Source: Paraspadella gotoi (taxonomy: Eukaryota; Animalia; Chaetognatha). From it: a DNA stretch of 17,630 nucleotides. The first letter of the stretch is position 1. Each line of letters opens with the position of its first letter. The notes beneath the pieces are model-generated. The model was not told where the DNA came from. It did no database searches and worked only from the letters and a program-made list of their open reading frames with translations. Below, piece by piece: positions 1 through 17,630 of this stretch. A program made the position numbers and the translations under genes. Location: assembly GCA_051294375.1 (NCBI GenBank), contig JBJCIZ010000020.1, positions 1 through 17,630 on the forward strand, written 5' to 3'.

Positions 1-70
1 TTTCAATGGCGTATTTATTTATTTAAAGTTTTTTTTTTGTTTTTTTTTTTTCGAAAATCCTTATTTTGGA

Positions 71-650
71 ATGGAGGCCGACGAAGATGATCCAATGATC
101 CCTATAAAGTGTGGGCTCACGAAGCGAGCGTCGATGGCCGAAAAGACGATGGCGCTGCAGATCGCGGTCCACGAGGCGTTGCACGGTCGCGTCGGCTCGG
201 ACTCAGCGTCGAACCAGTTTCGAAAGACGCTGAATCTCGTGGCAGAATCCTACGCTCAGATCTGGAATCCCGAGGAAAATTCGTCGAGCAAATTCTCTTA
301 CTCGACGTCTCGTCGACGACCTCGGATCGAAATCGGCGTCGGTTCTGGCAGCGACGGAGGCGCTCATCGCGGCGCTGGATTCCTTGACGCGGCCGAGGAT
401 TGGAGCGGGATTCTCAGTCGCTCGCGGGAAGGCCCGAAACGTCAAGATCAATGTTTGCCGCTTCGTTGGACGCGTCGGGCGGACGTCGCGCGTCGTATCG
501 AAGCGGACCTTGCGCCGTGTGATGAGAGGGTCGCGACTCTTCCGCGCCGTCGCGATCACGACGTCGAGAAAAACAACAACGGAGAAAGAACTTCTGACGA
601 AAGACGAGAATGATTCTCTCGAATCCGAGATTCCATTTTTTTTTTTTCTA
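71..650 (+). other. GC-rich host segment, possibly a coding exon of unknown product
   Basis: Sharp GC/CpG-rich island with several overlapping open frames, flanked by poly-T DNA. Frame, strand and product could not be determined. Confidence 0.3.
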
Positions 651-1314
651 AGCGCGGGATTTTTGTCGGTAGAAGTCTCGGAAACAAGATAGGGATGTTA
701 GAAAATCATGGATAATGCGAATTTTTATACATTCTATACATAACTAACACTCAGTTCTAATAAATAAAATTTTTCATGGTTTTTATTAATTGATCATATT
801 TCGACATGTGGTATGTAATAAAATATGGGGTGGGCTGAGTCCTGGTCGCCGGCGTTGGTGATGTAGTTTTAATTCCGTAAAAGAGCGTAGTTTCCGATGA
901 TTACAGAGTGTGGTAAATGGCGTGTCCACACTCGTCCTGACAGGAATCCTTATCCCAGTTCCACGTATTTAATTATTATTAAATCTGAAATGAGAACAAG
1001 AACTATTAGAACAAGGGTAATTGCAGTATCTACTTATTACTCAGTATCACTTATTTACACAAAATAATCAATGCATGTCAAAATATGAAGCAGTAAAAAA
1101 GCGCAAATAGAAAATCCACTTGGAAAAGTTGTAGATGAATCCACAAAATGTTGTGAGTTTGTAATCCACTTTAAATTGAGACCCTCTTTGGCACCCCAAG
1201 TCTTGAGTTATTAAGCCTTCAAGTCTTACTAGACTTTAAACCCGGAAATTATTTTAACCCTTAAGTCCTATGGGACTTTTAACCACCTTAGTCTTTAGAG
1301 ACTATTATAATTTG

Positions 1315-1409
1315 GGACTTAGACGTTTTCAGTCTCTCCTGGACTTGAACGTTTTTTATCTTCTCGGACTTAGACGTTTTCAGTCTCTCCTGGACTTGAA
1401 CGTTTTTTA
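1315..1409. repeat. 44-bp direct repeat x2 (period 51) inside the LTR, each with two GGACTT..ACGTTTT sub-units
   Basis: ggacttagacgttttcagtctctcctggacttgaacgtttttta at 1315 and 1366. Counterpart at about 15815-15910. Confidence 0.9.
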
Positions 1410-1587
1410 AGAACCTTTTCCAGCCGGACAGAGTTTCACCTTACACACCAGAGGGTCTCAGCAGACTCTCCCAGAGGTCTGCAGTGCTCCTCCTTATATA
1501 GACACCTTCTGGGTCACATGATCAGCCCTTGGGTCTAGCTCTTGCATTTTGGAGGGCTAAATCAACTATCTTGTTGGTTTTTACTAA

Positions 1588-1835
1588 TGCTTTAGCTATT
1601 CTTTGGCTTTTGCCAGTGCTAACCTAAAAGTTTAGGGTCATTAAAATTATAACTGCTTTTGCTTTTGCTAAAGCTACTTAAATTAGAGAAGCTCATTAAA
1701 GTTCCCTCTGCTTTTGCTTTTGCCTTAGCCAATTCAATTAGATAAGCCTATTATAATTCTGTCTTGCTTTTGCTCTTGCTTTAGCTAAAGTTTAGTCTCA
1801 TTGTTAATTGCTTTTCTTTAGGAAAGCTATTGCTT
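1588..1835. repeat. Degenerate ~55-bp tandem array in U3 (TGCTTTTGC core), enhancer-like
   Basis: tgcttttgc(t/c) cores at 1654, 1709 and 1765, with degenerate copies near 1604 and 1809. Upstream of the TATA box on the minus strand. Counterpart at about 16085-16330. Confidence 0.75.
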
Positions 1836-1916
1836 ATTAGTTAAATTATCAGTTATTCTATGAAACTATAAAATATATAAACTAATAAAAAATTACCCAC
1901 CTCATTTTTTATTACA

Positions 1917-1926
1917 TCCTCCCCGG
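1917..1926 (-). other. Polypurine tract (3' PPT)
   Basis: Minus strand CCGGGGAGGA directly abuts the TGTA start of the 3' LTR. Short, but in the canonical position. Confidence 0.8.
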
Positions 1927-2021
1927 TCTAGCTTTCTGCATGTCCTCATGCACATTTTAACAATTTTAGCTATATTTCACTCTGTCATCATCCATGTTGC
2001 TTTTTTCATTACACAGTGCCT

Positions 2022-3122
2022 TTAAAACCGGATGTCCATTAAGTATTCCTCCAGGGTCGTGGGCAAACCTAACTGATAATACTGATTAATTAGGACCCTT
2101 CCTTGGTTGTTTTTCACTAATTCATGTCTTATGGTCAGCTTAGATAAGTGTTTCAGCGATTTAACCAATCCTACTGGGTTTTCTCTCTCATCATCTCCTG
2201 TCATATACTCCACCATCTTCCTTGCAACAAACTCGTGGTGTGAATGCTTTGCCGCCTGCCAAGTTGATATTTTCTTGGTTGCTGCTGCATTAACATAGGC
2301 GGTATCTTCTAAGTTTCCTCCCGCTCTATACACTCCTTTTATCATCCTTAGATCACCTACATGGGAAGCGTTCCACATTGGGGTTGCCTGGAAAATATTC
2401 TTACTTAGTATTTTTGTTACTGGGATATCCAATATTGCCTCAGTTACTTTACGGTTTCCTTTGTTAACAGCATAATGAAGCACTGTATTTTGATTCTTAT
2501 CCCCTTGATTAATATCAGCTCCCTGTTTCGTTGCCAATTGTATTACTTCAATGATAAATTCATCATCCAGATTATTAATACATAAATTCATCAGAAATGT
2601 ACGCCCTGTATAAGCATCCTGTTCTTCAGTTGGCACTCCCTTCCCTAGCAATATCTCATATAATCGTAAATATGCAATTTCTGAGTTAGATGCCAGTATA
2701 TGTAAGAGAGTTTCACCATGTGTATTCTTTACTTTATAGTCATCCTCACCCATTCTGCTGCTAATTAGTTCTATAATTACTCTTGCTTTTGCATCATATT
2801 TTTTTCTTAATATTTTTGCCAAAGATATATTTCCCGAGTAATCAGTTTTCATTACATTTCCTCCTCGTACAAGCATCTGTTCCACAATATTTATTCTTTT
2901 CCTAGTCACGGCTATGTGCAATGGCGTTTGGCCATCATGGAACCTTATTTCATTAGGGTCGAACCCTTCTTCAAGTAACCTTTTAGTTACTCTTTCTCTT
3001 CCATATTCCGCTGCCATATGTAAGGCACCATTCATTTTTTCTCGTAATGCGAGCTCAATTGCTTCGTCATCTCTGCCGCCCAGGAATTTAACGTATAGTC
3101 CATAATTTGTTAGCGGAAACAT
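2022..3122 (-). CDS. Ankyrin-repeat protein with C-terminal SOCS box (ASB-like)
   Basis: Ankyrin motifs GALHMAA, GQTPLHIAV, GETLLHILA, GRTFLMNLC, NTVLHYAV, ATPMWNAS. The C-terminus SLKHLSKLTIRHEL...LGLPTTLEEYL fits a SOCS/BC box. First ATG is at 3122; the track start at 3158 is a TTG. Confidence 0.88.
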   Translation of the reverse strand: MFPLTNYGLYVKFLGGRDDEAIELALREKMNGALHMAAEYGRERVTKRLLEEGFDPNEIRFHDGQTPLHIAVTRKRINIVEQMLVRGGNVMKTDYSGNISLAKILRKKYDAKARVIIELISSRMGEDDYKVKNTHGETLLHILASNSEIAYLRLYEILLGKGVPTEEQDAYTGRTFLMNLCINNLDDEFIIEVIQLATKQGADINQGDKNQNTVLHYAVNKGNRKVTEAILDIPVTKILSKNIFQATPMWNASHVGDLRMIKGVYRAGGNLEDTAYVNAAATKKISTWQAAKHSHHEFVARKMVEYMTGDDERENPVGLVKSLKHLSKLTIRHELVKNNQGRVLINQYYQLGLPTTLEEYLMDIRF

Positions 3123-3284
3123 ATTTACTACACCTAAGAATAAAGAAATGCATGCCAAATCATTTATTTAGAACAACATATTTGTAGAACTTGTTCTACA
3201 TTCCCCCCCCCCGGACAAAACCTCGAACCATAAAACAAAACAAAAATTTTTATCACTTAATCATTTAATTTCCACTATTTTAAT

Positions 3285-4886
3285 TTACAGATCAAGTTTT
3301 TTCGGCTCTTTCAGTGATTTCCTATTTCTCAATCGTTTATTCCAACTTAATTCTTGGTCATTCTTCTCCTTAATCACTAACTCCTCCGTCTCTTTGTTAA
3401 CTTCCTCCTTGCAGTTGTCTGTATCGGAAGACGCCGGCCATTGGTGTCTCCCGTCTTCATCAGCGGACTCAGTCGACGTATCTGAGAAATCCGATTGATC
3501 CTCCATAATTATACCACCCTTTTGACATTCCCTTGGTTTTAATTCCCTAACCACTGCCTTCTTCAACTTCCTAGCATTCACTATCCTTTCAAAACCTGTC
3601 TCGTTATTTTTAATTACATATGTGGTTGGGGAAATGACCTTAATTACCGTATGATTAATCTCATAAGATTTAAATAGCTTTCCCGGTTGTAAAGGAGGTT
3701 TGAACCCCACCAACTCACCCACTACATAAGTCGGGACATTCGCTTTCTCTTTAGATTTCTCCCTTCTTAACTCCTGTCCCTCCTCATACCTTAAATTTAA
3801 CATTTCCATAACTTTTCTTCTTGCCCGTAATCGTTCTTCCAATTCATCCAAGATTTTTCTTTCTTTCCAACCGTGACTTTCTTTCCTGGTTAGAATAAGA
3901 TCTATTGGTTCAATAAGATTTCTCCCGTAAACAATAAAATTTGGCGATACCCCTGTTGCTGTATTTATACTACTATTATAGGCGCTGAATAAAAGGTTAA
4001 GCTGTTTTGGCCATTCTGAGATGTAACCATCCAGCATAACTGTCAAAATGTTGGAAATATTTCTGTTTACTTGTTCAATTAACCCATTAGCTGCAGGATT
4101 ATAAGATGCCGTTAGACATATATCAATTTGAAGACTCTCATAGATCGTTTTAAGTATTTTACCCGTGAACGTCCTTGCTCTGTCTGAGATAATGGCCCTC
4201 GGAACACCAAATCTTGGGATCCACGAAGAAATGATAACTTCTGCAACAACCGATGCTTCCATCGTGGGCGTAGGATACGCCATTACAAATCTCGATGCAT
4301 GATCTATAATCACCAGCACAAACCGGTTTTTAGATTGATATAGTATAGATCTGTCACTAACTGGTAAGGGGCCTTTAAAATCGTAAGATATGCATCCACC
4401 AATGTCATAACTATCCACACTGATAGGCTGGATCTCCGCCATTGGTTTATTTTTTGGACTTTTTCTACGTACACATAACGGACAAGTATTTATAAAGTCA
4501 GAAAGTCTAACAACCATTCTAGGAAAATAAAAACTTTTTACTAGCTTAAAATATGATTTACTTATTCCATAATGAGCGGATAAGGGACTACCGTGAGTAT
4601 GATATAAAATTTCGCTCACCTTAGACTCTGGTACAACAACGGCTTTGTCACCACCCGAAGTTTTTCTTAGCAGAACACCATCGTTGTCAATTTCTAAAGA
4701 CCGATAGACAGACTTGTACCCTTTGATAACCTCGTTCTTGAAATCGGGCTTTTGCCCCTCTAAAATGGCTTTCTTTACTAGTTTAATGCCTTCATCCTGG
4801 TTTTGAGCATACGCGAGTTCATTTTTTCGTGGTATGTTGGTTTCAAAAAGGTTGACAACATTATCATTCAATTGTAGTTCCATCAT
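3285..4886 (-). CDS. Stand-alone retroviral-type DDE integrase
   Basis: HHCC zinc domain (HGSPLSAH...CPLC). Catalytic D (SYDFKGP), D (ISDRA) and E (NGLIE) with 35 residues between the second D and E. Degenerate GPY/F-like segment (GKLFKSYEINHTVIKV) and acidic/basic tail. Confidence 0.95.
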   Translation of the reverse strand: MMELQLNDNVVNLFETNIPRKNELAYAQNQDEGIKLVKKAILEGQKPDFKNEVIKGYKSVYRSLEIDNDGVLLRKTSGGDKAVVVPESKVSEILYHTHGSPLSAHYGISKSYFKLVKSFYFPRMVVRLSDFINTCPLCVRRKSPKNKPMAEIQPISVDSYDIGGCISYDFKGPLPVSDRSILYQSKNRFVLVIIDHASRFVMAYPTPTMEASVVAEVIISSWIPRFGVPRAIISDRARTFTGKILKTIYESLQIDICLTASYNPAANGLIEQVNRNISNILTVMLDGYISEWPKQLNLLFSAYNSSINTATGVSPNFIVYGRNLIEPIDLILTRKESHGWKERKILDELEERLRARRKVMEMLNLRYEEGQELRREKSKEKANVPTYVVGELVGFKPPLQPGKLFKSYEINHTVIKVISPTTYVIKNNETGFERIVNARKLKKAVVRELKPRECQKGGIIMEDQSDFSDTSTESADEDGRHQWPASSDTDNCKEEVNKETEELVIKEKNDQELSWNKRLRNRKSLKEPKKLDL

Positions 4887-5032
4887 TTAAGGCTTAACTG
4901 GAACAGAAAGCGAACGATTAAACTATTTTAAACAGTGCAGTTGAATTACGGAATGAACTAATTAATATATTTATTTTTCCGTTTACTAATGTTAAGCACG
5001 TCATATGTACAGTCCCATTGGTACGGATAAAA

Positions 5033-6328
5033 TTAGTCAAATAATTCACCACCTTCAACAAAGTCAATGAACTGCCTTGTGTGTGTGCAAGGACATTCAA
5101 TTGCATCGTCATGGCAGTGGAAGCACTTTCCGCACCTTTTGATACCACAACATAATACCTTACATCCCGGATCCAAGTGTCTTACCTCCAAGCAGAAACA
5201 GTTGCTGCATGCCATTTTGGCATTATAAAAACGTACTAAGCTTGAGGGAAATCTCTCCTTTTCCCTTAACACCAAACATTCCTTAATCCATGGCCTCACG
5301 AATTTAGATATATTAACCTTGCACTTTTGGCTCATACGTATTTCTTTTAGTTTTTTCATATAAAATTTAACCCCACTTTCAATTTTCCTTCCAGTTTCCT
5401 CTTCCTTTTTCCCATCCTCTTTTTTGTCATCTTTCATGCTTTCTTTTTCATTCCCTTCTATATCCCTTTTGATACTTTTACTACGGTCATTTTCAGAAAA
5501 GCCTCTATTCTGATAACCAATCGTCCTGTATTCCCCCCTATTAGTATCAGTATTTTCTATTCCCCTAATTTCCTCTTGTGATACAGTAACAACAAGTTCC
5601 TCACCCCATTCCGATTCTTTATCACTATCATAGTCCTCACCCCCTTGACGACATAATCCCTGAACTTTATCCAGTTTATTCTGTACCATAGCTATTATTT
5701 CATTTTTATATTTATATATATCTTTGCTCTTCTCATACAACTCTTCCTGTATTATATCAACCTTTCCTTTCTCAATTTTCACCTTCTTCCACTCGGCTTC
5801 TAGTTTTTCCCGTTCTTTTATAAAAGTTGAGAGATCTACGTGCTCATAAAATGATTTTAAGAGTGGTTTCGTACGGGAAATCTCTTTAGGTAATGAAGCA
5901 GTATCATTGGGCCCCGGCGGAACTTGTTCAAATTCGCGCATTTCCCTCACTACATCATTAAGTACTCCTTTGGTTTTTAATATATACGTCAGGGTCTCGA
6001 TTTCTATCATATGTACTTTATCCAAACCAATATCTTTCTTTAAATATACCATAGCCCTCTCCTTTTCGACATTATTAAAACGTAATTTCGGATCTAGTTC
6101 CGTGACTAATTTTCTTAGCTCTCGGGAGTTATTAATTTCTTCTTGGAGTTGTTTATATAGTCTCCCGTTATCATCTTTTTCACACTCCAGTTGGATTTGA
6201 AGGATACGATAATCACTCTTGAGTCGCTCAATAGCTTTCTTACTTCTAGTTTCCGTCTCCCTTATCTTCTCCAGACAAGCGTCCAAATCGTTGGTCTCCA
6301 TTTTATATGATTCAATATTCTTTTCCAT
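5033..6328 (-). CDS. Hypothetical protein: coiled-coil N-terminus, charged linker, Cys/His-rich C-terminal domain
   Basis: 431 aa intact ORF in AT-rich DNA. E/K/L-rich heptad-like N-terminus. C-terminal CSNCFC...H...C...CC...CGKCFHCH...CPCTH. Confidence 0.8.
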   Translation of the reverse strand: MEKNIESYKMETNDLDACLEKIRETETRSKKAIERLKSDYRILQIQLECEKDDNGRLYKQLQEEINNSRELRKLVTELDPKLRFNNVEKERAMVYLKKDIGLDKVHMIEIETLTYILKTKGVLNDVVREMREFEQVPPGPNDTASLPKEISRTKPLLKSFYEHVDLSTFIKEREKLEAEWKKVKIEKGKVDIIQEELYEKSKDIYKYKNEIIAMVQNKLDKVQGLCRQGGEDYDSDKESEWGEELVVTVSQEEIRGIENTDTNRGEYRTIGYQNRGFSENDRSKSIKRDIEGNEKESMKDDKKEDGKKEEETGRKIESGVKFYMKKLKEIRMSQKCKVNISKFVRPWIKECLVLREKERFPSSLVRFYNAKMACSNCFCLEVRHLDPGCKVLCCGIKRCGKCFHCHDDAIECPCTHTRQFIDFVEGGELFD

Positions 6329-6506
6329 TCATCTGCTTAAATCAAGTTCACAAAAAATCAATAACATTATGGGAATAATTGAACGTGAGTAAATTAAAAT
6401 TAACTGACCGGACTTGATTGACCGTAATATAAGTAGAACAGAACTGCATCATTTAAGATTTTTATTAGTTCTGTATACCATACAATAAATATTTACAAAC
6501 AAAAGA

Positions 6507-7091
6507 TTAATTACTGTCGTCTTTATCTTCAGGCCCTATGTATGACAATACATTGTTCATTGATGACGTTAATTCTTCATGCATCATTACGTGAACTATC
6601 ATACGGTTTTTATTATTTCTAACCTTCTGACAATTAAAACACTGATATACTACAGGGTGAACCCTTTCCATATGCCTGTCTATATAAGTTCTATTAGGCA
6701 ATGGTTTATCACAAATATTACAACTAAAATTATGACGTTTTATGCGCCTTTTTAAACTTTTTGTCTTACTAAACCTTTTCTCGCATTCCAAGCACTGGTC
6801 CGTCTTATTTTCCGCCAACAGTCCGTAACGTTTCAAGCGCGGGGCTCTACCGAATCTCAACTTCTCGCTTTGCGACGTCATACTTCCTTCGTCCGTGATC
6901 ATGTGCGTTGACTCCGCACTTTCGACACCACCCATGAGCCTCATTCGGTTCTCGTTCGTCTAATCATTCTTACGTGGACGATCATCTTCCACGCTGGCGC
7001 GGGTTGGACTTAGCGCTTCGACGTCCGCTCTCATTGTCCGTTTCCTTGTATCAGGATTGATTAACCATATTTTGCTCTGGGGCATGGCCAT
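6507..7091 (-). pseudogene. Second three-finger C2H2 zinc-finger gene (ZnF-B), interrupted by an in-frame TAG
   Basis: The frame of track ORF 6507-6944 extends upstream to ATG 7091 (MAMPQSKIWLINPD...) through a single TAG at 6960-6962. Fingers CLEC...RIKRH (first His replaced by Arg), CNIC...HMERVH and CFNC...HVMMH. Confidence 0.72.
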
Positions 7092-7408
7092 TATTTCTGA
7101 CAAACACGTAATCTGTCAGTTAATTGTAAAAAAAAAGACGGTCAGTGAATCCGAATGGGTTAAAAGAATATAATAAAAGTGAATGGCAAAACACACGGCA
7201 AAACACTCATGGAATAATAGCCAATAATAAAAAAAAGAAAGACCGCGTTGGCCGTTTAATAACATTGTTACTCCTAAAACAAGAATAGCAAAGATGTAAA
7301 AAGGGTGGCTTGGCCATGGAAATATAGGAACAAGATCATTGACATTTCTGTCAACATACAGAATTAATGAAAATTGTGTCCAACAGAACGTAAAGAATCA
7401 CGTTTAGA

Positions 7409-7609
7409 TTAAAAAACTAAAAACTCCCGTTGAGTCACGAATCTTTCAGAACCAAAATATAATTGATTAAAATAATATATCAAAGCCACCAGCATTGGTG
7501 AACGAATTAAAAAAGAGGTAGTATGTTGAAATAAAAAATAAAAAACGATCACTTTGATCCACCCCATACTCTTCAGCATCTGTAAAACTAGGATCAATTC
7601 GTCATTCAT
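7409..7609 (-). CDS. Candidate small hydrophobic protein (66 aa)
   Basis: ATG overlaps the ZnF-A stop (ATGAATGA). Two hydrophobic stretches, though T-richness alone could produce these. Confidence 0.3.
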   Translation of the reverse strand: MNDELILVLQMLKSMGWIKVIVFYFLFQHTTSFLIRSPMLVALIYYFNQLYFGSERFVTQREFLVF

Positions 7610-8321
7610 GAATTTTCACTTTCGCGGCAATTTTGCGCGCCTCTTGGGAAAATTCCCGATGCAGTATCACATGGAGCGTAACTGAACTGCCCTCCCGAAA
7701 TTGCTTTCCACACACCAAGCATTCGTATTGTTTCGGGTGATACGCTTTATTGTGCAGTTCATACATCAACCGGTTCTTTATTTTTCTTTCACAATGTGTA
7801 CAAGTGTAAGAGTGGCATTTTAAGTGTCCGTTCCTTGCGTGAGGCGTCGAGAAAGTTTCTTGACACTGCTGACAATCATAGACAGTGGCGCCTTCGTTTT
7901 CTTCACCGCTTGCATCATCAGGCTTCTCAGTCTTTGTGTTGGCATTCACCGCGTAGGTTCCCACGTTTTCAATCCGCTGCCTTTTGTGCGGGGGAATCTC
8001 GCTGATTACAATGACGTCCGCCTCTCCCTTGACGACCGTTTCGTCTTCCCAAGCCTCTTCTTTTAGTGGTTCGCCGAGCTGCTTTTCGGGCGGAATGTGT
8101 AGATTCTTCAGACTCTCAGCTGGGCTCCCGAGTTTCTCCGTGTCCTTAGCTTCCTCATTCGCCGCTGCTGGATCATTGGCTCTGTTCCAACACATCCACG
8201 GATCTGTTCTAGAGGACATGGGCGCTTGCTCCAGTTCTCCGAGGATTCCGTCCGCATCTATGTTGCCCGTCAAGGATGCGTAGGTCGCCAGCGAGTGATG
8301 CCGATCTGCGACGCGTTCCAT
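7602..8321 (-). CDS. Three-finger C2H2 zinc-finger protein (ZnF-A) with acidic/disordered N-terminus
   Basis: Fingers CQQC...HLKCH, CTHC...HNKAYH and CLVC...HVILH. Start codon in GCCATGG Kozak context. Confidence 0.88.
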   Translation of the reverse strand: MERVADRHHSLATYASLTGNIDADGILGELEQAPMSSRTDPWMCWNRANDPAAANEEAKDTEKLGSPAESLKNLHIPPEKQLGEPLKEEAWEDETVVKGEADVIVISEIPPHKRQRIENVGTYAVNANTKTEKPDDASGEENEGATVYDCQQCQETFSTPHARNGHLKCHSYTCTHCERKIKNRLMYELHNKAYHPKQYECLVCGKQFREGSSVTLHVILHREFSQEARKIAAKVKIHE

Positions 8322-8421
8322 GGCGTATTGATCATATCCGCCACCCGTAGGGGCGCTATCGAGCTGTTGAATTTATTTATACGCCCTTATTATCAACGCC
8401 AAAAACACTGCCCCCAACCCG

Positions 8422-8645
8422 TTTATTCCTTTATTGATTTATTCATCTATTTATTTATTTCTTCATTTATTCGTTCATCTATTTATTTATTCATTTAATT
8501 TATTCATTTATTTACTTATTTCTTAAATACTACTCTTCTATTCAATCCATTCTATTATTTATCTATTTTAAACTGCCTCTAAATAACTAACTCCTCTCAC
8601 TCATAACTATTATTAAACTAATTACTAATTATTTATTTATTCTGA
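8422..8645. repeat. Low-complexity (TTTA/TTCA)n tract
   Basis: Repeated tttattta/ttcattta units upstream of ZnF-A. Confidence 0.8.
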
Positions 8646-9318
8646 ACTAAACTACACCATGCTTAATTATACTTCATGCTTTAACTACTCAGATTTTCCT
8701 ATCCCAAACCTTCAACCCAGACACTAACCAACGCTGTTGGGATCATCAGGTTTATCTCTTCCGACGGGTCATAATCATCAGGCGTGTACAACGGGTCCTC
8801 CGGCGACGTTTCGTTGAGTATCGGTTCCATCTTTTCGTCACAACGGGATAATTGGTTACACCACGAATCTCCGGTACCGTTAGAGCAGAACAATTCGTTC
8901 AGTCGCGGAGACGTTTTGAAGAAACACTAAGACGTTTCAGTTTATAATACGAGTTCCTTGGTTGTTTAAATCGCACAATTAAGTTTCACCCAAGCTCGGC
9001 GGCTTGCGATAATTATAATATTCCCAACCTGTTCAAAGAATGAGCAAAACCGACTTCATCTTTCGTTGTTTCAATTTACAAAGTAATCATCAATTTTTAA
9101 CCCTTTTTTCTTTTCACGCAACTTTTACAGAAATTTTACGACAGCGGTTAGTGTTTAGACTAAGTTCACACAAAAACTAAACTCGTCTTTGAACGGAACG
9201 TACTAACAGAGCCACATGATAATTCATTATTACCGTAATAATAGACATCGCGCGTCTATGTTTCTATGAACAGAACTTTGGACGGAACATAATAACTAAA
9301 AAATTACAACTATAGTTA

Positions 9319-10107
9319 TTACCGAAACAATAAGGCTTGTGCGTTTAACAGTTTCAGGGGGGTCTTGTACCATTCTACTTCAACTACATTTACTCGAATG
9401 CCGAAAAATACGGAGGGGATGTACCTATTTGTACTCAGACGATTAAACCATCCTAAATTAGGTATGTTCTGAGGCAAAATACTAATAGATTCACGATGAT
9501 CAATAAAAATTTTATCACTACGGACATGCAAGTCCATTCCAAAATGTAAAATACTAGCTAAATTTTCTACTTGTTTCATACTTAATCTTCCATTATAAAT
9601 TAAGTACTTACCAACATTGGAATGTTGTATGTTCTGCGCTAGAGAGTATAACAACCAATACTCTTGGAAGTCTGACATAATTAATCCTTTACCGAATTGT
9701 AAGACTTCTGCAAATACACAACCACACGAACTAACTTTTCCTGTGAGCTCAATAGAGGCAAATTGATATTTTCCGTTATCTGTAGCTTCTTTAAACCATC
9801 TCACTAATCGTAATATGTCTTCCACCTCATTCATCTCTGTTAAACGTCTAGAAATAATAATATGTACATGCTGATAAGCAGCGCTTTCAAATGCCGCCTG
9901 TATCGGCCAGAGTTCCTCTGTTTCGCACAGTGTGAGGATTAATGTTTTTCTAGGGAGGACGTTGAACAGTGTAGAGCTCTCTACTTGGATTTCCAAGACG
10001 CTTTCGAAGATCATTGACGCTTCGGCCGCCGCCATCTTGTCTCGAGTCGGGAGATACGCCATAATATCTCGTTTCACGTCCGCCGGTAATTCTCCGATTG
10101 TAGTCAT
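9319..10107 (-). CDS. F-box domain protein
   Basis: The N-terminus IGELPADVKRDIMAYLPTRDKMAAAEASMIF follows the F-box pattern (LP..v...I..YL...D). The remaining ~220 aa were not recognised. Confidence 0.75.
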   Translation of the reverse strand: MTTIGELPADVKRDIMAYLPTRDKMAAAEASMIFESVLEIQVESSTLFNVLPRKTLILTLCETEELWPIQAAFESAAYQHVHIIISRRLTEMNEVEDILRLVRWFKEATDNGKYQFASIELTGKVSSCGCVFAEVLQFGKGLIMSDFQEYWLLYSLAQNIQHSNVGKYLIYNGRLSMKQVENLASILHFGMDLHVRSDKIFIDHRESISILPQNIPNLGWFNRLSTNRYIPSVFFGIRVNVVEVEWYKTPLKLLNAQALLFR

Positions 10108-10208
10108 CTGAGGAGGAATTAAAATTTTCTATCAATATACGTCTATTACAATTATAACCGTTACTAATTAATTATAGGGGCAAGGTTAACCGTACACTCT
10201 TGTCATCA

Positions 10209-10442
10209 CTAAAAACCGAATAAGTAAGTTTGACAGAAAATTTCATAGGCAGCGGCACCTATACCTGGCGATAATATAATATACGTACGAATTACGTAAC
10301 AAAACCTCCAGCCTTTTGAGGTTTTCATTGTAAAATTAAACCAGACGATCGGGATTTTCCAAGGACCACAAGGATTTTTCACTGAGAAAAGCCGGTGTCT
10401 TAGTCTGGACCGTCTAAGGATGACCACCCTTCCCTTTTTCAT
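10209..10442 (-). CDS. Candidate small basic protein (77 aa)
   Basis: ATG start with a CAG 9 nt upstream. Arg/Lys-rich N-terminus MKKGRVVILRRSRLRHR. Same strand as all element genes. Confidence 0.4.
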   Translation of the reverse strand: MKKGRVVILRRSRLRHRLFSVKNPCGPWKIPIVWFNFTMKTSKGWRFCYVIRTYIILSPGIGAAAYEIFCQTYLFGF

Positions 10443-10682
10443 TTTAGTTGGCTGGCCGGGCCGGATATAAAATTTTCCCTTAGGTCACCTTATAAACCCA
10501 TGACCAATAGCCGCGGTTTTCTAACGACCACAAGTGCGCACCACCCTGCGTCCACTTCACCCTCGTCTCTCTATAATTCAATATTGAATTACAACCATTA
10601 AAATAAACACAATAGTAGGTTAATCGCCGTCACTAAATTATCCCAGGCTTGGCACCACCCCTGCCATTTAATGCTTTCCTTA

Positions 10683-13631
10683 CTACAGTTCCTCTACATC
10701 TTTAGAAGCAAGAATCCGAAAACTACCCTCTTTTCCTCCTTGCTTCCTTTTCCAGACAAATCTAACCAATCCCACTCCGATATTTCCTTCCAACTCCGTT
10801 TCCTTTTGCATTTTTTTCAGTGATCGTCTAAGTTGTACTTCTTTACCCTCCCCATAATTAACTTCTACTACTTCATTATTTATTATTAACTCCTGATTTT
10901 CGTCAAAATCTTCCTTAGTGGGTTTTTCCACTTTAAACCATGATCTTAAGATAGGGCTACCATAATCAGTATAAAGCCTCAAAATGGGCTTTTCCATTTT
11001 AACCGCCATTCTTTCCTCCTCGTTGGCTTCAAATCCATACGGAACTCTACTCAGAATGTCAGCTACAATCATTTCCCTACTGTCCCCAGGTTTATGGTGA
11101 ACCTCAAAGTTAAATTGAGATAGAAAATTTAACCATCTGCTAATCTTTTGAGAGGAGTCTCTCATAGTAGAAACATATCTTAAACTACTATGGTCTGAGA
11201 AGACAATAAAGGGGGATGTTAAGTAATGTCTATATTTTTTAACCCAATGGGCAATAGCAAAACACTCTTTCTCCGTTGTACTCCACGAAACTTCGGCTGC
11301 CTTCAGCGTGCGCGATCCATAAGCTAATAAACTTAATTCTCCGTCAGGTTTTAATTGCGACAGAGTAGCGCCGATCCCTTTTCCTGATGCATCGGTAGTT
11401 AATATCATGGGGAAATTAGGATCATAATAATTTCGTATAGGGGCACTTATTAATTTTTGTTTTAAGGTATCCATGGCAACTTGACACTCATCCGTCCATC
11501 TAAATGGAACACCTTTTCTTGTTAGATTAATAATGGGAGCTAAAATCTGACTATGAGATTTAATAAAAGTCCTATAATAATTACAAATCCCAAGGAACCT
11601 TTGGACGCCTTTAACATTTTTAGGTATAGGAAACTCAGTAATTGCGTCAACTATATGTTTACACGTTTTTATGCCTTTATCAGAAATTACAAAACCTAAA
11701 AATTCTACCGACGATTGAAATAATTTACATTTTACCGCTCTTAATTTCATACCTCCCTCTTTTAATTTTTTAAGTACCCGGATTAATCTCTCATGTGCCT
11801 CTTCTAAAGTTTCCCCAAAAATTATCACGTCGTCTATGTAAACGACAGCCTCCTTCCAACACAACTCTCCTAGAACTTCCTCCATTAATGCTTGATAACT
11901 TGTTGGCCCCGAATTTAAGCCAAACGGAAGTCTTTTAAACTCAAATAGCCCTTTCCTAGTAGAAAAGGCCGTTATTGGCCGCGATTCCTCCTCCAAGGGG
12001 CATTGATGATACCCCTGGAAAAGATCTAACGTGTGAAACCATTTCTGGCCACGAAATTGATCTAACAGTTGTTCTATATTAGGCAACGGATGGGCTAATG
12101 GAGCAACGCACAATGAATTAACTGCTCGGTAATCAATGCACAGTCGCCACCGGTTCTTCCGTTCCTCCCAAGATAAAACTATTCTGGAGTTCCAATTACT
12201 ATTGGAGGGCTGTACTATATCTTGTTTTATCAGTTTCTGGACTTCCTTATCTATAAAGGCATTCTGTTCTTCACTAAATTTACGATTTTTCTGCTTTACA
12301 GGATTAGTATTAGGTTTAAGGATTATTTTATGTCTAGTCTTAGTAGTATGGCCTACTGGTCGATCCTCCCACTGAAAGACTTCTTTATGCTCATCTAATA
12401 TTTTTCTTACTTTAGCTTTTTCCTCATCACTAAGCTCTGATTTTTCTAGCCCAAAATTTACCTCATCTAGTCTTTTACTATCAAAATCCTCATAGACCAT
12501 AGTATCTTCTACACACTCGTCACTCTCTAAACACTCAGCGAATTCTTCCTCATAATTTTTCCCATCCCCCACTGTATTTATTAATATAGGCATAGGACGT
12601 GAAAAAGAAAATGTGCCAAAATCCTCACCTTTCACTAAAGCCAACCTACGGGTCCCTTGGTTTATTACTTGAGTAATTACCACTGGCTTAGCTATGGTCA
12701 AAACCCTACTAGCATTAATACCATATTTCCATATATCTTTAAATGGCTGAATAATACCTTCGCCCCCTTCATTTTTTAGGCCCTCAATTTCTACCCTAAT
12801 ATCACAAGCAGATTGTGGTGGCAGAACGACATCCTCTGCTATTCTAACCTTTCTTACACCCCTCTGATCCTTATACATAAAATTTATATGCATTTGCCCC
12901 GCCTTAGGTTGGAAGCAAGTACCATCTGCTAAATTAACATTAAATGAATGACGGCATATCTCATCTAATCCCAATAGACCTTGAATTTCTAATCCCCTTA
13001 TAACATAAAATTTAATAGTAGCTGAATAATTACGTTTAAAACCATAAAATATAACAGGTAATTTTACGTATCCTATGCACTCGATCTTTGTCCCATTAAC
13101 TGCCTCAAACTGTGAACCATGAGGGTGTAAAATATACCTCTTATCTGAATTAATCATATCATACATTTCTTCTGATAATAAAGTTTTCACGCTACCAGTA
13201 TCAAAGCCCAACCTAGTTTCTATACCCCTTACTCCTACAGTAATATACGTGTAAGTAGGGAGAGACTGGAAATCGTCATAAACTTCTTCTTCTACTATTT
13301 CCAGATCCTTATCAATCTGCGGGCTTTCTTCCTCAACCCACCCAAAAATTTCCTCGGCCCCAGTGATTTTTTCAATTTCTACATTTGAAATTTTTTCCTC
13401 ATGGGACTTATTTTCTTTCTTACTTAACTCTTCATTAACTACTCTTACTTTGGGGCTCTCCTTTACTTCTAAACTTTGTTCCCCGTTTATTTTTGGGATT
13501 ATATTTTTCTCAGTTTGATTGTTTAAATTAAACCGGACCTTTTTCTTTACATCCGTTACCCCTTTTATTTCGCTTTCTAGTTTATTTTTTATCCCAGGCT
13601 GCCCCCCTCGCGGGGGGCTATTTAGTTTAAA
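10683..13631 (-). CDS. pol: Pol: aspartic protease, reverse transcriptase and RNase H, with no integrase; expressed as Gag-Pol by frameshift
   Basis: Frame is stop-free from 13643 to 10683; the track start at 13211 is an internal TTG. Protease: ITVGVRGIETRLGFDTGS. RT: WRLCIDYRAVN, LDLFQGYHQ, LPFGL, YIDD. RNase H: TTDASGKGIGA, TEKECFAI, SDH, ADILSR. Confidence 0.96.
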   Translation of the reverse strand, partial: FKLNSPPRGGQPGIKNKLESEIKGVTDVKKKVRFNLNNQTEKNIIPKINGEQSLEVKESPKVRVVNEELSKKENKSHEEKISNVEIEKITGAEEIFGWVEEESPQIDKDLEIVEEEVYDDFQSLPTYTYITVGVRGIETRLGFDTGSVKTLLSEEMYDMINSDKRYILHPHGSQFEAVNGTKIECIGYVKLPVIFYGFKRNYSATIKFYVIRGLEIQGLLGLDEICRHSFNVNLADGTCFQPKAGQMHINFMYKDQRGVRKVRIAEDVVLPPQSACDIRVEIEGLKNEGGEGIIQPFKDIWKYGINASRVLTIAKPVVITQVINQGTRRLALVKGEDFGTFSFSRPMPILINTVGDGKNYEEEFAECLESDECVEDTMVYEDFDSKRLDEVNFGLEKSELSDEEKAKVRKILDEHKEVFQWEDRPVGHTTKTRHKIILKPNTNPVKQKNRKFSEEQNAFIDKEVQKLIKQDIVQPSNSNWNSRIVLSWEERKNRWRLCIDYRAVNSLCVAPLAHPLPNIEQLLDQFRGQKWFHTLDLFQGYHQCPLEEESRPITAFSTRKGLFEFKRLPFGLNSGPTSYQALMEEVLGELCWKEAVVYIDDVIIFGETLEEAHERLIRVLKKLKEGGMKLRAVKCKLFQSSVEFLGFVISDKGIKTCKHIVDAITEFPIPKNVKGVQRFLGICNYYRTFIKSHSQILAPIINLTRKGVPFRWTDECQVAMDTLKQKLISAPIRNYYDPNFPMILTTDASGKGIGATLSQLKPDGELSLLAYGSRTLKAAEVSWSTTEKECFAIAHWVKKYRHYLTSPFIVFSDHSSLRYVSTMRDSSQKISRWLNFLSQFNFEVHHKPGDSREMIVADILSRVPYGFEANEEERMAVKMEKPILRLYTDYGSPILRSWFKVEKPTKEDFDENQELIINNEVVEVNYGEGKEVQLRRSLKKMQKETELEGNIGVGLVRFVWKRKQGGKEGSFRILASKDVEEL
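13601..13631 (-). promoter_or_regulatory. -1 programmed ribosomal frameshift signal (gag-pol)
   Basis: Minus strand T TTA AAC slippery heptamer (13631-13625) in the gag frame just before the gag TAA. It is followed by a 6-nt spacer and the hairpin GCCCCCC-GCGA-GGGGGGC. The -1 frame is open, by manual translation, through to pol. Confidence 0.92.
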
Positions 13632-14971
13632 GGAACCGTGGCATTAGAATTTACCGGTTGTAACGCTGGGACTTGTGAGGGCAAGCCCGTCTGATTATCC
13701 TGTCCCCTTACGCGGTTTTGAGCCTCCCCCAATTCTGTGTTCGCTGGCAACCTAAAAAGTCCTCTTTCTCTATCCTCCCTTTGTATTTTTATAAGGTAAT
13801 TGTCTGCTAATTGTAGAGGACAGTCCCTTCTCAAATGCCCTTTTCTTTCACAACGATAACATGTCACGTTCCTATCCCTATTCCAGTTACTGTCACTTCG
13901 TCTCCTCATATTTCCATTATTACCATTATTATAATTATTGATATTCCTATTATAATTATTCTCATTACCCCAGTTATTGTTATTGATAGGGTTATTATTT
14001 TTACCTTGATTTTGACCTTCCTCATTCACTTTCCCTATAAAACTATTTTGTGCGATAAGCATTTCATCAGCCTTTTCTATGAGCTGATCTAAAGAGGCTT
14101 CTTGACCCACGGTCGCTTTTAAAATCTTACGGTCGGTCAGTGCAACTGATTCATATACCTTAAATCTCATCATCTCAACTGCAAAAGTTCCGGCCGGATC
14201 CATGCCTGCCCTTCGAATATACATGCGACACCTATCAATAAATGTAGTTATACTTTCCTTCGGGTGTTTTTTAGCAGAAAGAAAATTTTCTTTATTTTTC
14301 TGCTCAGACTGAGGATCCAGCTTCCTTCTTAACGCTTGAATTAAAATCTCAGTGCTTATTTTTTCCCTTTCCGTTAGGGTATCATAAGCCCTTTTTGCGG
14401 CCCCATTCAGGCTAGGTGGTAAGGCCGCTACGAACTTTCTTATATCCCAACCGTTACAAGTAATACATGCCTGTACCTTATCCACCCACTCATCAAATTC
14501 CAATCCCACTCCGTCATACGATGGTAACTTCTGATTATTAATTGCCCGCGAATTTTCTTGAGAAATACGTAACCTTTCAAATTCTGATGCCAACGATTCC
14601 ATATCATCCCTATGATATTTTTGTTGATTAAGAATTAAATCCCTATATGTATCCTTATCCTCCTCCGCTTGCTTTTGAATTATATTTATATTCCGCTGCA
14701 TATTCTCATTTTGACACCTTAATACGTCGGAGATCATTTTACCCATCTCTTTTAACGCTTCGCCGATCTCACCCATTTTCAGTACTTTCCCTTTACTCCC
14801 GTCGGTTTCCTTCAAACCCTGGGAATTCTCAGTTACAAATATTTCTTGAGGGAGTTCTAACTCACTCTCCCCTAACCCGCTAGTATCCAGTGAAACCTTA
14901 AATTTTTTAACCGCACTATTAGTTAATTTAGCTGCCTGCCTTTTCGTTAATCTCGATTTTTTATTTTCCAT
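13622..14971 (-). CDS. gag: Gag (coiled-coil N-terminus, capsid-like region, Asn-rich linker, CCHC zinc knuckle)
   Basis: 449 aa ORF. Zinc knuckle CYRCERKGHLRRDC (CX2CX4HX4C). Capsid-like LPSYDG...FDEWV motif. Located between PBS and pol. Confidence 0.93.
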   Translation of the reverse strand: MENKKSRLTKRQAAKLTNSAVKKFKVSLDTSGLGESELELPQEIFVTENSQGLKETDGSKGKVLKMGEIGEALKEMGKMISDVLRCQNENMQRNINIIQKQAEEDKDTYRDLILNQQKYHRDDMESLASEFERLRISQENSRAINNQKLPSYDGVGLEFDEWVDKVQACITCNGWDIRKFVAALPPSLNGAAKRAYDTLTEREKISTEILIQALRRKLDPQSEQKNKENFLSAKKHPKESITTFIDRCRMYIRRAGMDPAGTFAVEMMRFKVYESVALTDRKILKATVGQEASLDQLIEKADEMLIAQNSFIGKVNEEGQNQGKNNNPINNNNWGNENNYNRNINNYNNGNNGNMRRRSDSNWNRDRNVTCYRCERKGHLRRDCPLQLADNYLIKIQREDRERGLFRLPANTELGEAQNRVRGQDNQTGLPSQVPALQPVNSNATVPLN

Positions 14972-15007
14972 AAAATTTAAACTCTTACGTATTTATATTT
15001 CTTATTC

Positions 15008-15268
15008 TTAAGAGTATGTAACACCACAATTAATATCGAGCGACCCGTCACTCACCCTCGTAACAACAATATTATGTATTAAAACCCGTTCAGGCACTGG
15101 CGAAACTGGCAAAGGATTTAACGCGTTCTGTATTAACCTTCTTATTATCTCAGGGTTGATATTGTGAACTCCTGTCACTCTACCCAAATTATTACGTTGG
15201 TTACTATTACTATTATTATTGTTACCGGAACCTTGCCCACTACTATCACACGGTTGCCTTAAAACCAT
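15008..15268 (-). CDS. Candidate 86-aa upstream ORF between PBS and gag
   Basis: ATG at 15268 (MVLRQPCDSS...), open to 15008, filling most of the leader. No recognisable domain. Confidence 0.4.
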   Translation of the reverse strand: MVLRQPCDSSGQGSGNNNNSNSNQRNNLGRVTGVHNINPEIIRRLIQNALNPLPVSPVPERVLIHNIVVTRVSDGSLDINCGVTYS

Positions 15269-15271
15269 AGG

Positions 15272-15279
15272 ACTCACCG
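15272..15279 (-). promoter_or_regulatory. Candidate major 5' splice donor
   Basis: CG|GTGAGT, with the intron starting at 15277, 9 nt downstream of the PBS match. This is where retroviral major donors lie. Confidence 0.65.
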
Positions 15280-15286
15280 ATTCGAA

Positions 15287-15301
15287 CCACGTTGGGCGCC
15301 A
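15287..15301 (-). other. Primer-binding site complementary to the tRNA-Lys(CUU) 3' end
   Basis: Minus strand reads TGGCGCCCAACGTGG, 2 nt after the 5' LTR end. This matches the first 15 nt of the known Lys1,2-type PBS TGGCGCCCAACGTGGGGC. Confidence 0.93.
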
Positions 15302-15303
15302 GT

Positions 15304-16413
15304 TGTAATAAAAATATGGGGGTGGGCTGAGTCCTGGTTGCCGGCGTTGGTGATGTAGTTTTAATTCCGTAAAAGAGCGTGGTTTCCGACGATTACAGAG
15401 TGTGGTAAATGGCGTGTCCACACTCGTCCTGACAGGAATCCTTATCCAAGTTCCACGTATTTAATTATTATTAAATCTGAAATGAGAACAAGAAATATTA
15501 GAACAAGGGTAATTGCAGTATCTACTTATTACTCAGTATCACTTATTTACACAAAAGAATCAATGTATGTCAAAATATGAAACAGTAAAAAAGCGCAAAA
15601 TAGAAAATCCACTTAGAAAAGTTGTAGATGAATCCACAAAATGTTGTGAGTCTGTAATCCACTTTAAATTGAGACCCTCTTTGGCACCCCAAGTCTTGAG
15701 GTATTAAGCCTTCAAGTCTTACTAGACTTTAAACCCGGAGATTATTTTAACCCTTTTTAGTCCTATGGGACTTTTAACCACCTTAGTCTTTAGAGACTCA
15801 GCTATTATAATTTGGGACTTAGACGTTTTCAGTCTCTCCTGGACTTGAACGTTTTTTATCTTTCTTCGGACTTAGACGTTTTCAGTTCTCTCTCTGACTT
15901 GAACGTTTTTTAAGACCTTTTCCAGCCGGACAGAGTTTCACCTTACACACCAGAGGGTCTCAGCAGACTCTCCCAAGGTCTGCAGTGCTCCTCCTTATAT
16001 AGACACTTCTGGTCACATGATCAGCCCTGGGTCTAGCTCTTGCATTTTGGAGGGCTAAATCAACTATCTTGTTGGTTTTTTACTATGCTTTAGCTATTCT
16101 TTGGCTTTGCCAGTGCTAACCTAAAAGTGTTTAGGTCATTTAATTAAACTTGCTTTGCTTTTGCTAAAGCTACTTAATTAGAGAAGCTCATTAAAGTTCC
16201 CTCTGCTTTTGCTTTTGCCTTAGCCAATTCAATTGATAAGCCTATTATAATTCTGTTCTGCTTTTGCTTCTTGCTTTAGCAAGTTTAGTCTCATTGTTAA
16301 TTGCTTTTCTTTAGGAAGAAAGCTATTGCTTATTAGTTAAATTATCAGTTATTCTATGAAACTATAAAATATATAACTACTAATAAAAAATTACCCACCT
16401 CATTTTTATTACA
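15304..16413 (-). repeat. 5' LTR
   Basis: Starts TGTAATAAAA at 15304 and ends TTTTATTACA at 16413. Near-identical to 814-1916 and directly adjacent to the PBS. Confidence 0.96.
15995..16001 (-). promoter_or_regulatory. LTR TATA box (copy in 3' LTR at 1494-1500)
   Basis: Minus strand CTATATAAGG, with a candidate AGT initiation site about 32 nt downstream (15969). Confidence 0.65.
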
Positions 16414-17630
16414 AATATAAAAATAAGTGGTTTGATATTGACTCGATCGAAAAATACTGATTAATACAAACTTTTAAGAAGAAAGTATGTGAATGATATT
16501 AATTTTATGTACATTACATATAACACTCTTGCATAGTCTGATTAATGTCGTTGCTAAGAAAAATGATTGTTTGACGAATCAGTCCGCACATTCTTAATGC
16601 GGAAGTCACCGATTCAACCGTATCGGTGATTTGATTCTTGTTAAATATTGAGTTGAATCATCACGAATAGGAATGCAATTTAATTCTTACTGTTAAATGG
16701 AATAGACAACTAACAAATTAAACTTATTAATTAATTAATTAACTTTGCATTCCCATTGGATTATTACTTAGCTGTTACTAAAATAAGTTGATCAATCGTT
16801 CTTAAATGTGACCTTTTCCGTAACCTTTTTGACCTTTTTGACTTTGGTCACCAGGAGGTCAGCGCCGCCTGTATTAGATTGTGTTCAGTCTCTCACTATG
16901 GTTACGCGCAATCATAGTATTTTTTTTTCAAATTTCTTTCATCATGTACCAACCTCCATCCTTGTCCATCTTTTCCAAAAAAAAAAACCTATTGAGATTG
17001 ATCAAAAAAATATATATAGTTATTTAATTATTATCATCTCCAATTATCAGTCCCACTTCTATCCACATCATAACTGACATTTTTATTTATTATTCCCGAC
17101 TTTACACATTTTCTTAATTAACATTATGCTAATAACTCAATGATCATTAATATTGGATAAGAAGTACTGATTTCTCAATTATTCCATATTAAAATTTAAA
17201 AAAATTCTTTTCTTTACAAAAAAGAACACAGAACAACATTACACGCGTGCAAGGCCGTCGAAGAGTATATTGAAAAGTCTAACGTGAGGTATGTGCAGCA
17301 TATAACAGGAAAAGCACAAAACAGTTGGAGAAAACAAATGTTTTATATTTTACTCATTTTCCCACCCATTTAAGTATTATATTTTTTTTTTCAAAGAATT
17401 AATTCAATTCCAATATTATCAAACAGTTTCTGTTATCATTTTGAGAATAATTCATTTGTTCTTAAGTTATAATATACTAAAAGTTAGATTTATAGAACAT
17501 CTAGAAGAGGAAAAATAATACCCAAGTTATTAAAGTCCGGTCAGTCAGTCACGTGTACATACTCATTGCATACGTGGTTAGCGTCCATCACCACATTCAC
17601 ACTAAATCTCAGCAGTGCGGTAAAATTTCC

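Follow-up and report, generated by a model that had tools for sequence, protein, structure and literature searches.

The pol gene of the Metaviridae includes the integrase (IN), which follows the protease (PR), reverse transcriptase (RT) and RNase H (RH) in the order PR-RT-RH-IN, and the internal region of these elements ranges from 3 to >15 kb (PMC7879559). Here, we describe a long terminal repeat (LTR) element of 15.6 kb (814-16413, minus strand) in a 17,630-nt stretch of the genome of the chaetognath Paraspadella gotoi (assembly GCA_051294375.1, contig JBJCIZ010000020.1, positions 1 to 17,630; this whole stretch is referred to as the window). The element resembles Ty3/Gypsy elements in its LTRs, primer-binding site (PBS), polypurine tract (PPT), CCHC-type gag, PR-RT-RH-IN order and internal size (PMC7879559). 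However, IN is encoded here by a gene of its own, 5.8 kb downstream of pol with four genes between them, and Pol ends in a new tail. Because its pol does not contain the integrase, we call the element Ty3/Gypsy-like rather than counting it among the canonical Metaviridae.

Several described elements share parts of this organization. According to the accessible parts of the reports on Cer1 of C. elegans, this env-less Gypsy-type element encodes a spliced, Cys-rich accessory protein (CERV, an export factor), contains many splice sites that are skipped by the genomic RNA and has a subgenomic mRNA that is SL1 trans-spliced, whereas its IN stays in Pol and one accessory gene follows pol (PMC10309623, PMC3315495). 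Burro/GYPSM1 of planarians, as far as the available part of its description goes, is also a large Gypsy-like element with ankyrin, coiled-coil, zinc-finger and ubiquitination-related cargo, but it exceeds 30 kb, carries most of this cargo in a polyprotein of ~5000 aa (open reading frame 1, ORF1) between gag and pol, shows env homology and has an unsplit PR-RT-RH-IN; the same part gives a length of up to 17 kb for foamy-like fish endogenous retroviruses (PMC6431247). No single giant ORF of the Burro type is present in our element, which contains eight separate ORFs, the longest being 986 codons. In the sections available of the respective papers, Juno, Vesta and TelKA of bdelloids (PMC5408684) and Tor of Oikopleura (PMC4402516) are similar in having extra ORFs that are expressed separately by splicing or from an internal promoter, but they have one ORF3 behind an unsplit pol. 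The RT of the P. gotoi element is much nearer to that of Ty3 than to those of foamy viruses or murine leukaemia virus. Complex retroviruses express several accessory genes from subgenomic mRNAs, and foamy virus Pol is produced independently of Gag and has to be packaged separately; these viruses differ from our element in that env is present and IN lies within Pol.

In our view, the best explanation for the locus, with a probability of roughly 60%, is a split-pol Ty3/Gypsy-like element in which the mRNAs for IN and the cargo genes are led by splice acceptors and Gag-PR-RT-RH is likely produced by -1 frameshifting.

The stand-alone integrase and the Pol tail

The two parts into which pol is divided are as follows.

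10683..13643, minus strand: pol frame, encoding PR-RT-RH and a 120-aa clade-specific tail, then a stop, no integrase
3285..4886, minus strand: stand-alone IN gene, 533 aa, with HHCC and DDE intact and an acceptor-like site 11 nt before the ATG

The pol frame stops after RNase H at 10683, and a fifth accessory gene lies behind IN. Pfam profiles for RT and RNase H matched pol and those for H2C2 and rve matched IN, and the nearest solved structures are those of Ty3 for both RT-RH (E 1.9e-95) and IN (E 5.5e-25). When aligned with Ty3 Gag-Pol, the profile of RT-RH extends as far as residue 1017, and that of IN begins at residue 1021; therefore, pol is broken at the RH/IN boundary. The catalytic residues of PR, RT, RH and IN and the HHCC motif are intact and, wherever covered, invariant among relatives. 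A preceding examination of the letters without database searches (the sequence-only reading) had judged the element mostly intact. It had also placed IN correctly within the series of genes, but passed over its separate and distant encoding, which is the main departure from known elements.

The protein search with RT-RH, which admitted lengths of 542-1726 aa, yielded 533 matches. Among the best 120, 11 relatives show 63-75% identity, after which the identity falls to ≤43%. An IN domain is present in none of these 11 close Pol relatives, as opposed to 92 of the 109 distant ones. In the corresponding IN search, 14 of the 45 matches are 44-58% identical and none of the 14 contains RT or RH; fused forms of >931 aa are outside the range of this search and are covered by the Pol search. 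In 12 of the 14 close integrases, a Met is found in register with the start of IN in the window. The Pol tail following RNase H is conserved throughout the 11 close clusters, whereas the rest of the 222 proteins compared gave no match to it at E<0.8; it also has no match in Pfam or the PDB.

In a FastTree phylogeny of Pol (121 rows), 12 rows form one branch with a support of 100, a stem of 0.73 and no supported sister. In the IN tree (124 rows, omitting P0013, which is too short), 14 rows also form one branch with a support of 100, with a long-branch warning because the group meets another long branch. Judging from these protein sequences, the split pol is a trait of a whole clade. The trees were built among these protein relatives; within this frame the RT and IN trees suggested by the sequence-only reading each recovered one group. 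Its proposal of a lineage, possibly undescribed, is supported by both groups and by the accessory Cys gene described below, which has 30 relatives. The clade is apparently unnamed. A matching layout was not found in open-access full text (Repbase, Dfam, GyDB and supplements were outside this search), and the accessible parts of PMC13524379 and PMC2774666 contain no description of such a layout.

These relatives also bear on the simplest alternative, namely that 5.8 kb of host or transposon DNA was inserted into an ordinary gag-pol Gypsy element at this single locus. The host-like nature of the cargo would fit, and a break at the RH/IN boundary would spare both halves. However, pol is split in every relative of 63-75% RT identity, and the tail and the start of IN are conserved; no terminal repeats flank the cargo block, and neither an uninterrupted form of the element nor a joint skipping the cargo was listed in the eight sequencing runs aligned (see below). 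The insertion is thus largely refuted by the relatives, and we consider it very unlikely.

A single locus obtained from 40 JGI metagenome candidates (L001, 28% identical) was placed outside the clade; its IN frame continues from RH-like sequence. No relatives were found in scans of viral contigs and prokaryote genomes. The C-terminus of IN (3288-3330) carries a basic tail of the W..RLR.R type after an acidic linker, which is kept in the window and in 11 of the 14 close integrases, the other three ending early or diverging; this tail is a candidate nuclear-import or packaging signal.

Element structure and assembly

The structural features of the element and its gag region are as follows.

15304..16413, minus strand: 5' LTR, 1110 nt, TG..CA, with a TATA-like box at 16001
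15287..15301, minus strand: PBS, separated from the 5' LTR by a 2-nt spacer
13622..14971, minus strand: gag, 449 aa, with one CCHC knuckle (Pfam) and weak capsid matches (capsid chains)
13601..13631, minus strand: predicted -1 frameshift signal, consisting of TTTAAAC, a 6-nt spacer and a 7-bp GC hairpin
1917..1924, minus strand: PPT, directly before the 3' LTR
814..1916, minus strand: 3' LTR, 1103 nt, TG..CA, without target-site duplication

The LTRs are two long direct repeats located ~14.5 kb apart. When they are aligned (16413-15304 versus 1916-814), 1070 positions match, 16 are substituted and 32 gap events occur. Indels of a similar kind separate the window from short-read contigs in its flanks and in the 3' LTR. 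Therefore, many of the LTR gaps are probably consensus errors, and the insertion looks young; the element is intact and was probably inserted recently. The PBS is one that we take to be of the tRNA-Lys type. No Rfam families or tRNA genes were matched. The 3' part of each LTR contains an acceptor-type hexamer, TTTCAG (15482-15477 and 990-985, minus strand), which might, as in Cer1, be a site of trans-splicing, and tandem repeats of 26-27 nt and 55 nt inside the LTRs (1315-1406, 1639-1788 and 15815-15912) are candidate enhancer or R-region motifs.

All eight long ORFs (gag, PR-RT-RH, F-box-like, ZnF-A, ZnF-B, coiled-coil/Cys, IN and ankyrin-SOCS) are on the minus strand, and together with the LTRs they uphold the co-oriented 15.6-kb Gypsy element, in the order PBS-gag-pol-cargo-IN-ankyrin-SOCS-PPT, that had been proposed earlier. 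The absence of env, proposed at the same time, was also confirmed: none of the eight ORFs contains a membrane-like stretch (maximum KD19 value 1.23), and no env with surface and transmembrane parts was found after IN, where the ORF is ankyrin-SOCS. A hydrophobic frame of 93 codons (7397-7119, KD19 1.70) was rejected as env; in this stretch, the samples differ by numerous substitutions and by deletions of 8 and 10 nt.

Gag is identified by its zinc knuckle (zf-CCHC, E 1.8e-05), with a Retrotrans_gag match that does not reach the cut-off (E 0.015) and matches to capsid chains (E 0.001-0.002). The gag and pol frames overlap by 22 nt, the pol frame has no Met before codon 160, and TTTAAAC lies in the gag frame, followed 6 nt on by a GC hairpin whose folding has a z-score of -2.16 (5 of 200 shuffled sequences fold as well). 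Signals for -1 frameshifting usually consist of a slippery heptamer with a downstream hairpin. It is therefore very probable that frameshifting at this site would yield Gag-PR-RT-RH.

Nine runs from three studies, all of one organism, contain at least half of the sequence words of positions 2000-11900; none of them is recorded as RNA, which has no bearing on expression. Eight runs were aligned. X1 possibly represents the source sample. In this run, positions 1917-8129 are covered by one contig with eight differences and no gaps, and a contig of 7158 nt covers 8181-10700 without differences and extends further; between them (8100-8210), there are two variants of equal depth (72 and 72.5), which are either two alleles or two copy sets, and the other variant occurs in X8 and X9. 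X2, from the same sample as X1, spans 9948-14811. X5, from another study, bridges pol/F-box (8729-12269), CC-ZnF-A (6150-8129), IN/CC (3256-5746) and pol/gag (12242-15184), where CC denotes the coiled-coil/Cys gene, and X6 bridges ankyrin-SOCS and the LTR. The depth is flat across pol and the cargo in X1 and X2. In X10, from a different organism, only a microsatellite matched.

Because short-read contigs of the source sample and of a second study bridge the interior, the gene order is not attributable to mis-assembly, a possibility that the sequence-only reading had itself raised. The notion that unrelated pieces were joined between two LTRs draws on the missing target-site duplication, on the small indel errors in the window flanks and LTRs relative to the short-read contigs, and on the fact that no one record spans the element: the bridging is by overlapping contigs, the longest of which is shorter than the whole element, and the flank junctions lie outside the bridged span. 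However, these contigs tile the interior almost without differences in two studies, so that at most the two flanks would come from different insertions, and we regard such an artefact as extremely unlikely.

The left flank contains a GC-rich, gene-like region (59-705) with a depth of ~670 in the RNA-like runs X6/X7, as against ~10 for the element; the window has 14-15 gaps there relative to short-read contigs, and no Pfam match was obtained in the frames tried. The right flank (16465-17630) is an AT-rich, high-copy repeat region in the DNA-like run X2 (summed depth 500-970).

Accessory genes and introns

The genes that accompany gag, pol and IN, and the introns detected, are listed below.

9319..10107, minus strand: F-box-like ORF, 262 aa, with an acceptor-like site immediately 5' of the ATG
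8927..9028, minus strand: GT-AG intron 5' of ZnF-A exon 1, from one RNA-like dataset
8729..8830, minus strand: ZnF-A coding exon 1, 34 codons
8364..8728, minus strand: ZnF-A intron, 365 nt, containing a TTTA microsatellite
7602..8363, minus strand: ZnF-A exon 2, three C2H2 fingers; the spliced protein is 287 aa
6507..6959, minus strand: ZnF-B, two C2H2 fingers and one degenerate finger; first ATG at 6944
5033..6328, minus strand: coiled-coil/Cys protein (CC), 431 aa, whose C-terminal Cys/His domain is conserved and belongs to no known family
3482..4619, minus strand: three frame-breaking GT-AG introns within IN (4619-4304, 4162-3886 and 3789-3482), from one RNA-like dataset
2022..3122, minus strand: ankyrin-repeat and SOCS-box ORF, 366 aa (ASB-like), with an acceptor-like site 11 nt before the ATG

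The domain labels given earlier were recovered by Pfam for the zinc-knuckle gag, RT, RNase H, IN, C2H2 fingers (in two ORFs), ankyrin and SOCS, whereas the F-box fell below the cut-off (PF00646, first 48 aa, E 0.053, 13.9 bits versus 20.5). In the Atlas, the look-alikes of this ORF are nematode F-box/FTH/FBA clusters (eight shown, 0.92-0.96, seven of which have F-box members), with a recognition value of 2220, under the mark of 2300. No PDB or PHROG match was obtained. The single-sequence model has a pLDDT of 50, at which the Foldseek hits are meaningless (TM ~0.25), and the VIA matches are middling and LRR-like (Z ≤7.2). The ankyrin-SOCS protein is clearer: it matches Ank_2 (E 1.5e-22), has a C-terminal SOCS box (25.5-30.8 bits versus a cut-off of 23.5) and resembles animal ASB proteins, its first Atlas match being a nematode cluster tied with mollusc and arthropod clusters. 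Taken by themselves, these look-alikes would point to an animal host, probably a nematode. F-box and SOCS-box proteins are cullin ubiquitin-ligase adaptors that recruit substrates; from domain identity, a role of these two genes in counter-defence or host manipulation is plausible.

The claim that the genes lack introns did not hold. A joint at 8363-8729, found in X6/X7 with a 183-nt side and also in X5, is a GT-AG intron that links a 34-codon exon in frame to ZnF-A. X6/X7, counted as one dataset because their depths are identical and RNA-like by the guess of the tool, contain five further joints with 28-nt sides. Four of the five are GT-AG, namely 9028-8927 and three within IN (316, 277 and 308 nt), and these introns are moderately supported. 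All seven splicing combinations of the IN introns shorten the protein to 95, 270 or 369 aa. A joint at 12642-12750 without GT-AG ends was discarded, together with joints that came from look-alike records.

CC has 30 relatives at E values up to 0.001, four of which are of similar length, and 12 Cys/His positions of its C-terminal domain are kept in 25-30 of 31 rows. This domain is modelled at a pLDDT of 88-96; it has no Pfam, PHROG, PDB-sequence or BFVD match, and the VIA structure search was filled by the coiled coil and barely probed the domain. Three Cys-domain clusters match IN clusters in exact contig size and source (5782, 2550 and 4698 nt), where 0.09 would be expected (P(≥3) 8e-5; 20 of the 30 clusters were looked up and 18 by 32 sizes compared), which implies that CC likely travels with the stand-alone IN across the clade. 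Thus, one of the five accessory genes (CC/Cys) is supported as a lineage trait by these comparisons, and the virus-like accessory set envisaged by the sequence-only reading stands in this part and not for the other four, since the F-box ORF has no relative and ZnF-A, ZnF-B and ankyrin-SOCS are unplaced. Many relatives of the Cys/His domain (P0183-P0210) are just 113-217 aa long, suggesting stand-alone or separately spliced versions, and the longer forms P0195 and P0196 have RGG-rich linkers, suggesting RNA binding.

This difference among the accessory genes invites another interpretation, in which gag, PR-RT-RH, the Cys protein and the stand-alone IN are the lineage trait and F-box, ZnF-A, ZnF-B and ankyrin-SOCS are useless host genes that were recently transduced. 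It accords with several findings that weigh against the explanation we prefer: none of 755 candidates is a sequence relative of the F-box ORF, the four genes were seen in one species only (X10 being negative), and constraint on the cargo is weak. Between samples, the unbiased set contains 28 cargo variants, 11 of them synonymous (p 0.02-0.11, depending on the mutation model), and 14 of the 33 listed in an enlarged set are synonymous (expected fraction 0.20-0.27; p 0.003-0.11 across sets), but 9 of 14 changes in CC and all of those in ZnF-B are non-synonymous. The GC content of ZnF-A also stands apart (51% versus 37-40% in the other ORFs). On the other hand, the four cargo frames are open, with no stop among the 33 variants listed, strong acceptors lie at the ATG of two of the genes, the exons of ZnF-A are joined in frame by splicing, and ZnF-B and ankyrin-SOCS match gag and pol in A-rich strand composition. 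Moreover, ZnF-A and ZnF-B are paralogues with 24% identity (over 86 aa, E 1e-13), and their duplication is therefore old. Recent passengers are, on balance, rather unlikely.

Both X1 and X9 contain the stop that lies immediately upstream of ZnF-B; since this stop is shared and can be read as a weak acceptor, it is no private lesion. In X8, deletions of 1 nt (6890) and 20 nt (6933-6952) near the 5' end of ZnF-B, found in separate contigs, together make a multiple of three and hint at a reading frame that starts upstream of the first ATG.

Expression and packaging

IN can come neither from the frameshift polyprotein nor, since 5.8 kb and four genes intervene, from stop-restart translation. Three of the seven starts (F-box, IN and ankyrin-SOCS) are preceded by acceptor-like sites scoring at least 10 of 12 pyrimidines. 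Such scores are reached by 1% of the 295 remaining ATGs of the minus strand, by 1.5% of positions in non-coding sequence and by 5% on the plus strand; weaker acceptor-like sites precede CC and ZnF-B. The mRNAs of IN, F-box and ankyrin-SOCS are thus probably joined at acceptors 0-11 nt before each ATG. The joining could possibly occur by spliced-leader trans-splicing of an operon-like 3' block, which we place slightly ahead of cis-splicing from a 5' donor, a somewhat unlikely route.

Alternatively, internal promoters might drive IN and the cargo, as for env in Oikopleura Tor3b/4b (PMC4402516, in its accessible part), with the same layout and no trans-splicing. In favour of this view, no long-distance splicing of the 5' end to any of the downstream genes was seen in the RNA-like runs, although short introns appeared, and the spacers before F-box, ZnF-A and ZnF-B measure 488-657 nt. 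However, the spacers before CC, IN and ankyrin-SOCS are merely 146-178 nt, and each contains AATAAA followed by an acceptor-like site. We judge promoter-driven expression unlikely in comparison with acceptor-led mRNAs.

On the preferred explanation of acceptor-led mRNAs, splicing any of the three IN introns would truncate IN, and it is slightly favoured that intron retention sets the IN dose. The genomic RNA and the IN mRNA must keep introns; therefore, the clade-conserved Cys gene is a natural candidate for an export factor, and we tentatively suggest that CC may be a Rev/CERV-like factor for the nuclear exit of intron-containing RNA. Lacking a Gag-Pol tether, IN might reach the particle or the cDNA by non-covalent binding, for which the Pol tail is the obvious candidate, although we hold this to be rather doubtful. 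The F-box, ankyrin-SOCS and two C2H2 genes may be captured host-type genes whose products degrade or regulate host silencing factors, a proposal with a chance a little short of even. Taken to its full extent, the scheme would be an env-less lineage with a nematode-style operon as its 3' half, IN that is trans-spliced and dosed by intron retention, a Rev-like zinc protein, packaging by the Pol tail, and captured SCF/Elongin-Cullin adaptors and zinc-finger factors directed against silencing; this combination as a whole is unlikely.

Beyond the cargo data above, a further set of observations counts against our explanation. The acceptor threshold was set after the sites had been seen, and no joint or leader at the acceptors of IN, F-box and ankyrin-SOCS is among the loose ends listed. 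The IN introns come from one dataset at 85% likeness, where short sides at low likeness draw a warning from the tool, and they are unseen in X1, X2, X5, X8 and X9. The close relatives are protein records from ENA, Logan and, in one case, JGI, and the linkage of CC and IN in them is based on matching contig sizes. The Cys pattern of CERV (C193, C195, C200 and C269 in the accessible part of its description), compared by spacing, differs from that of CC. Lastly, the two ends of the element are flanked by different sequences (5' flank ATATT, 3' flank TACCA), in flanks that may hold assembly errors.

In the textbook scheme, IN reaches the particle solely as part of Gag-Pol. The IN of this element would need an unusual route of production and packaging, and a natural clade with a free and distant IN, extending down to 63% identity in RT and 44% in IN, makes the recruitment and dosing of IN separable and testable. 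Both the Pol tail and the Cys/His domain of the clade are conserved domains that are new, the latter belonging to a candidate second Rev-like factor in an invertebrate retrotransposon, and the element is possibly a transposon with two kinds of ubiquitin-ligase adaptor. Annotation pipelines that need contiguous RT-RH-IN would split or miss such elements, which may explain why a description of them was not found.

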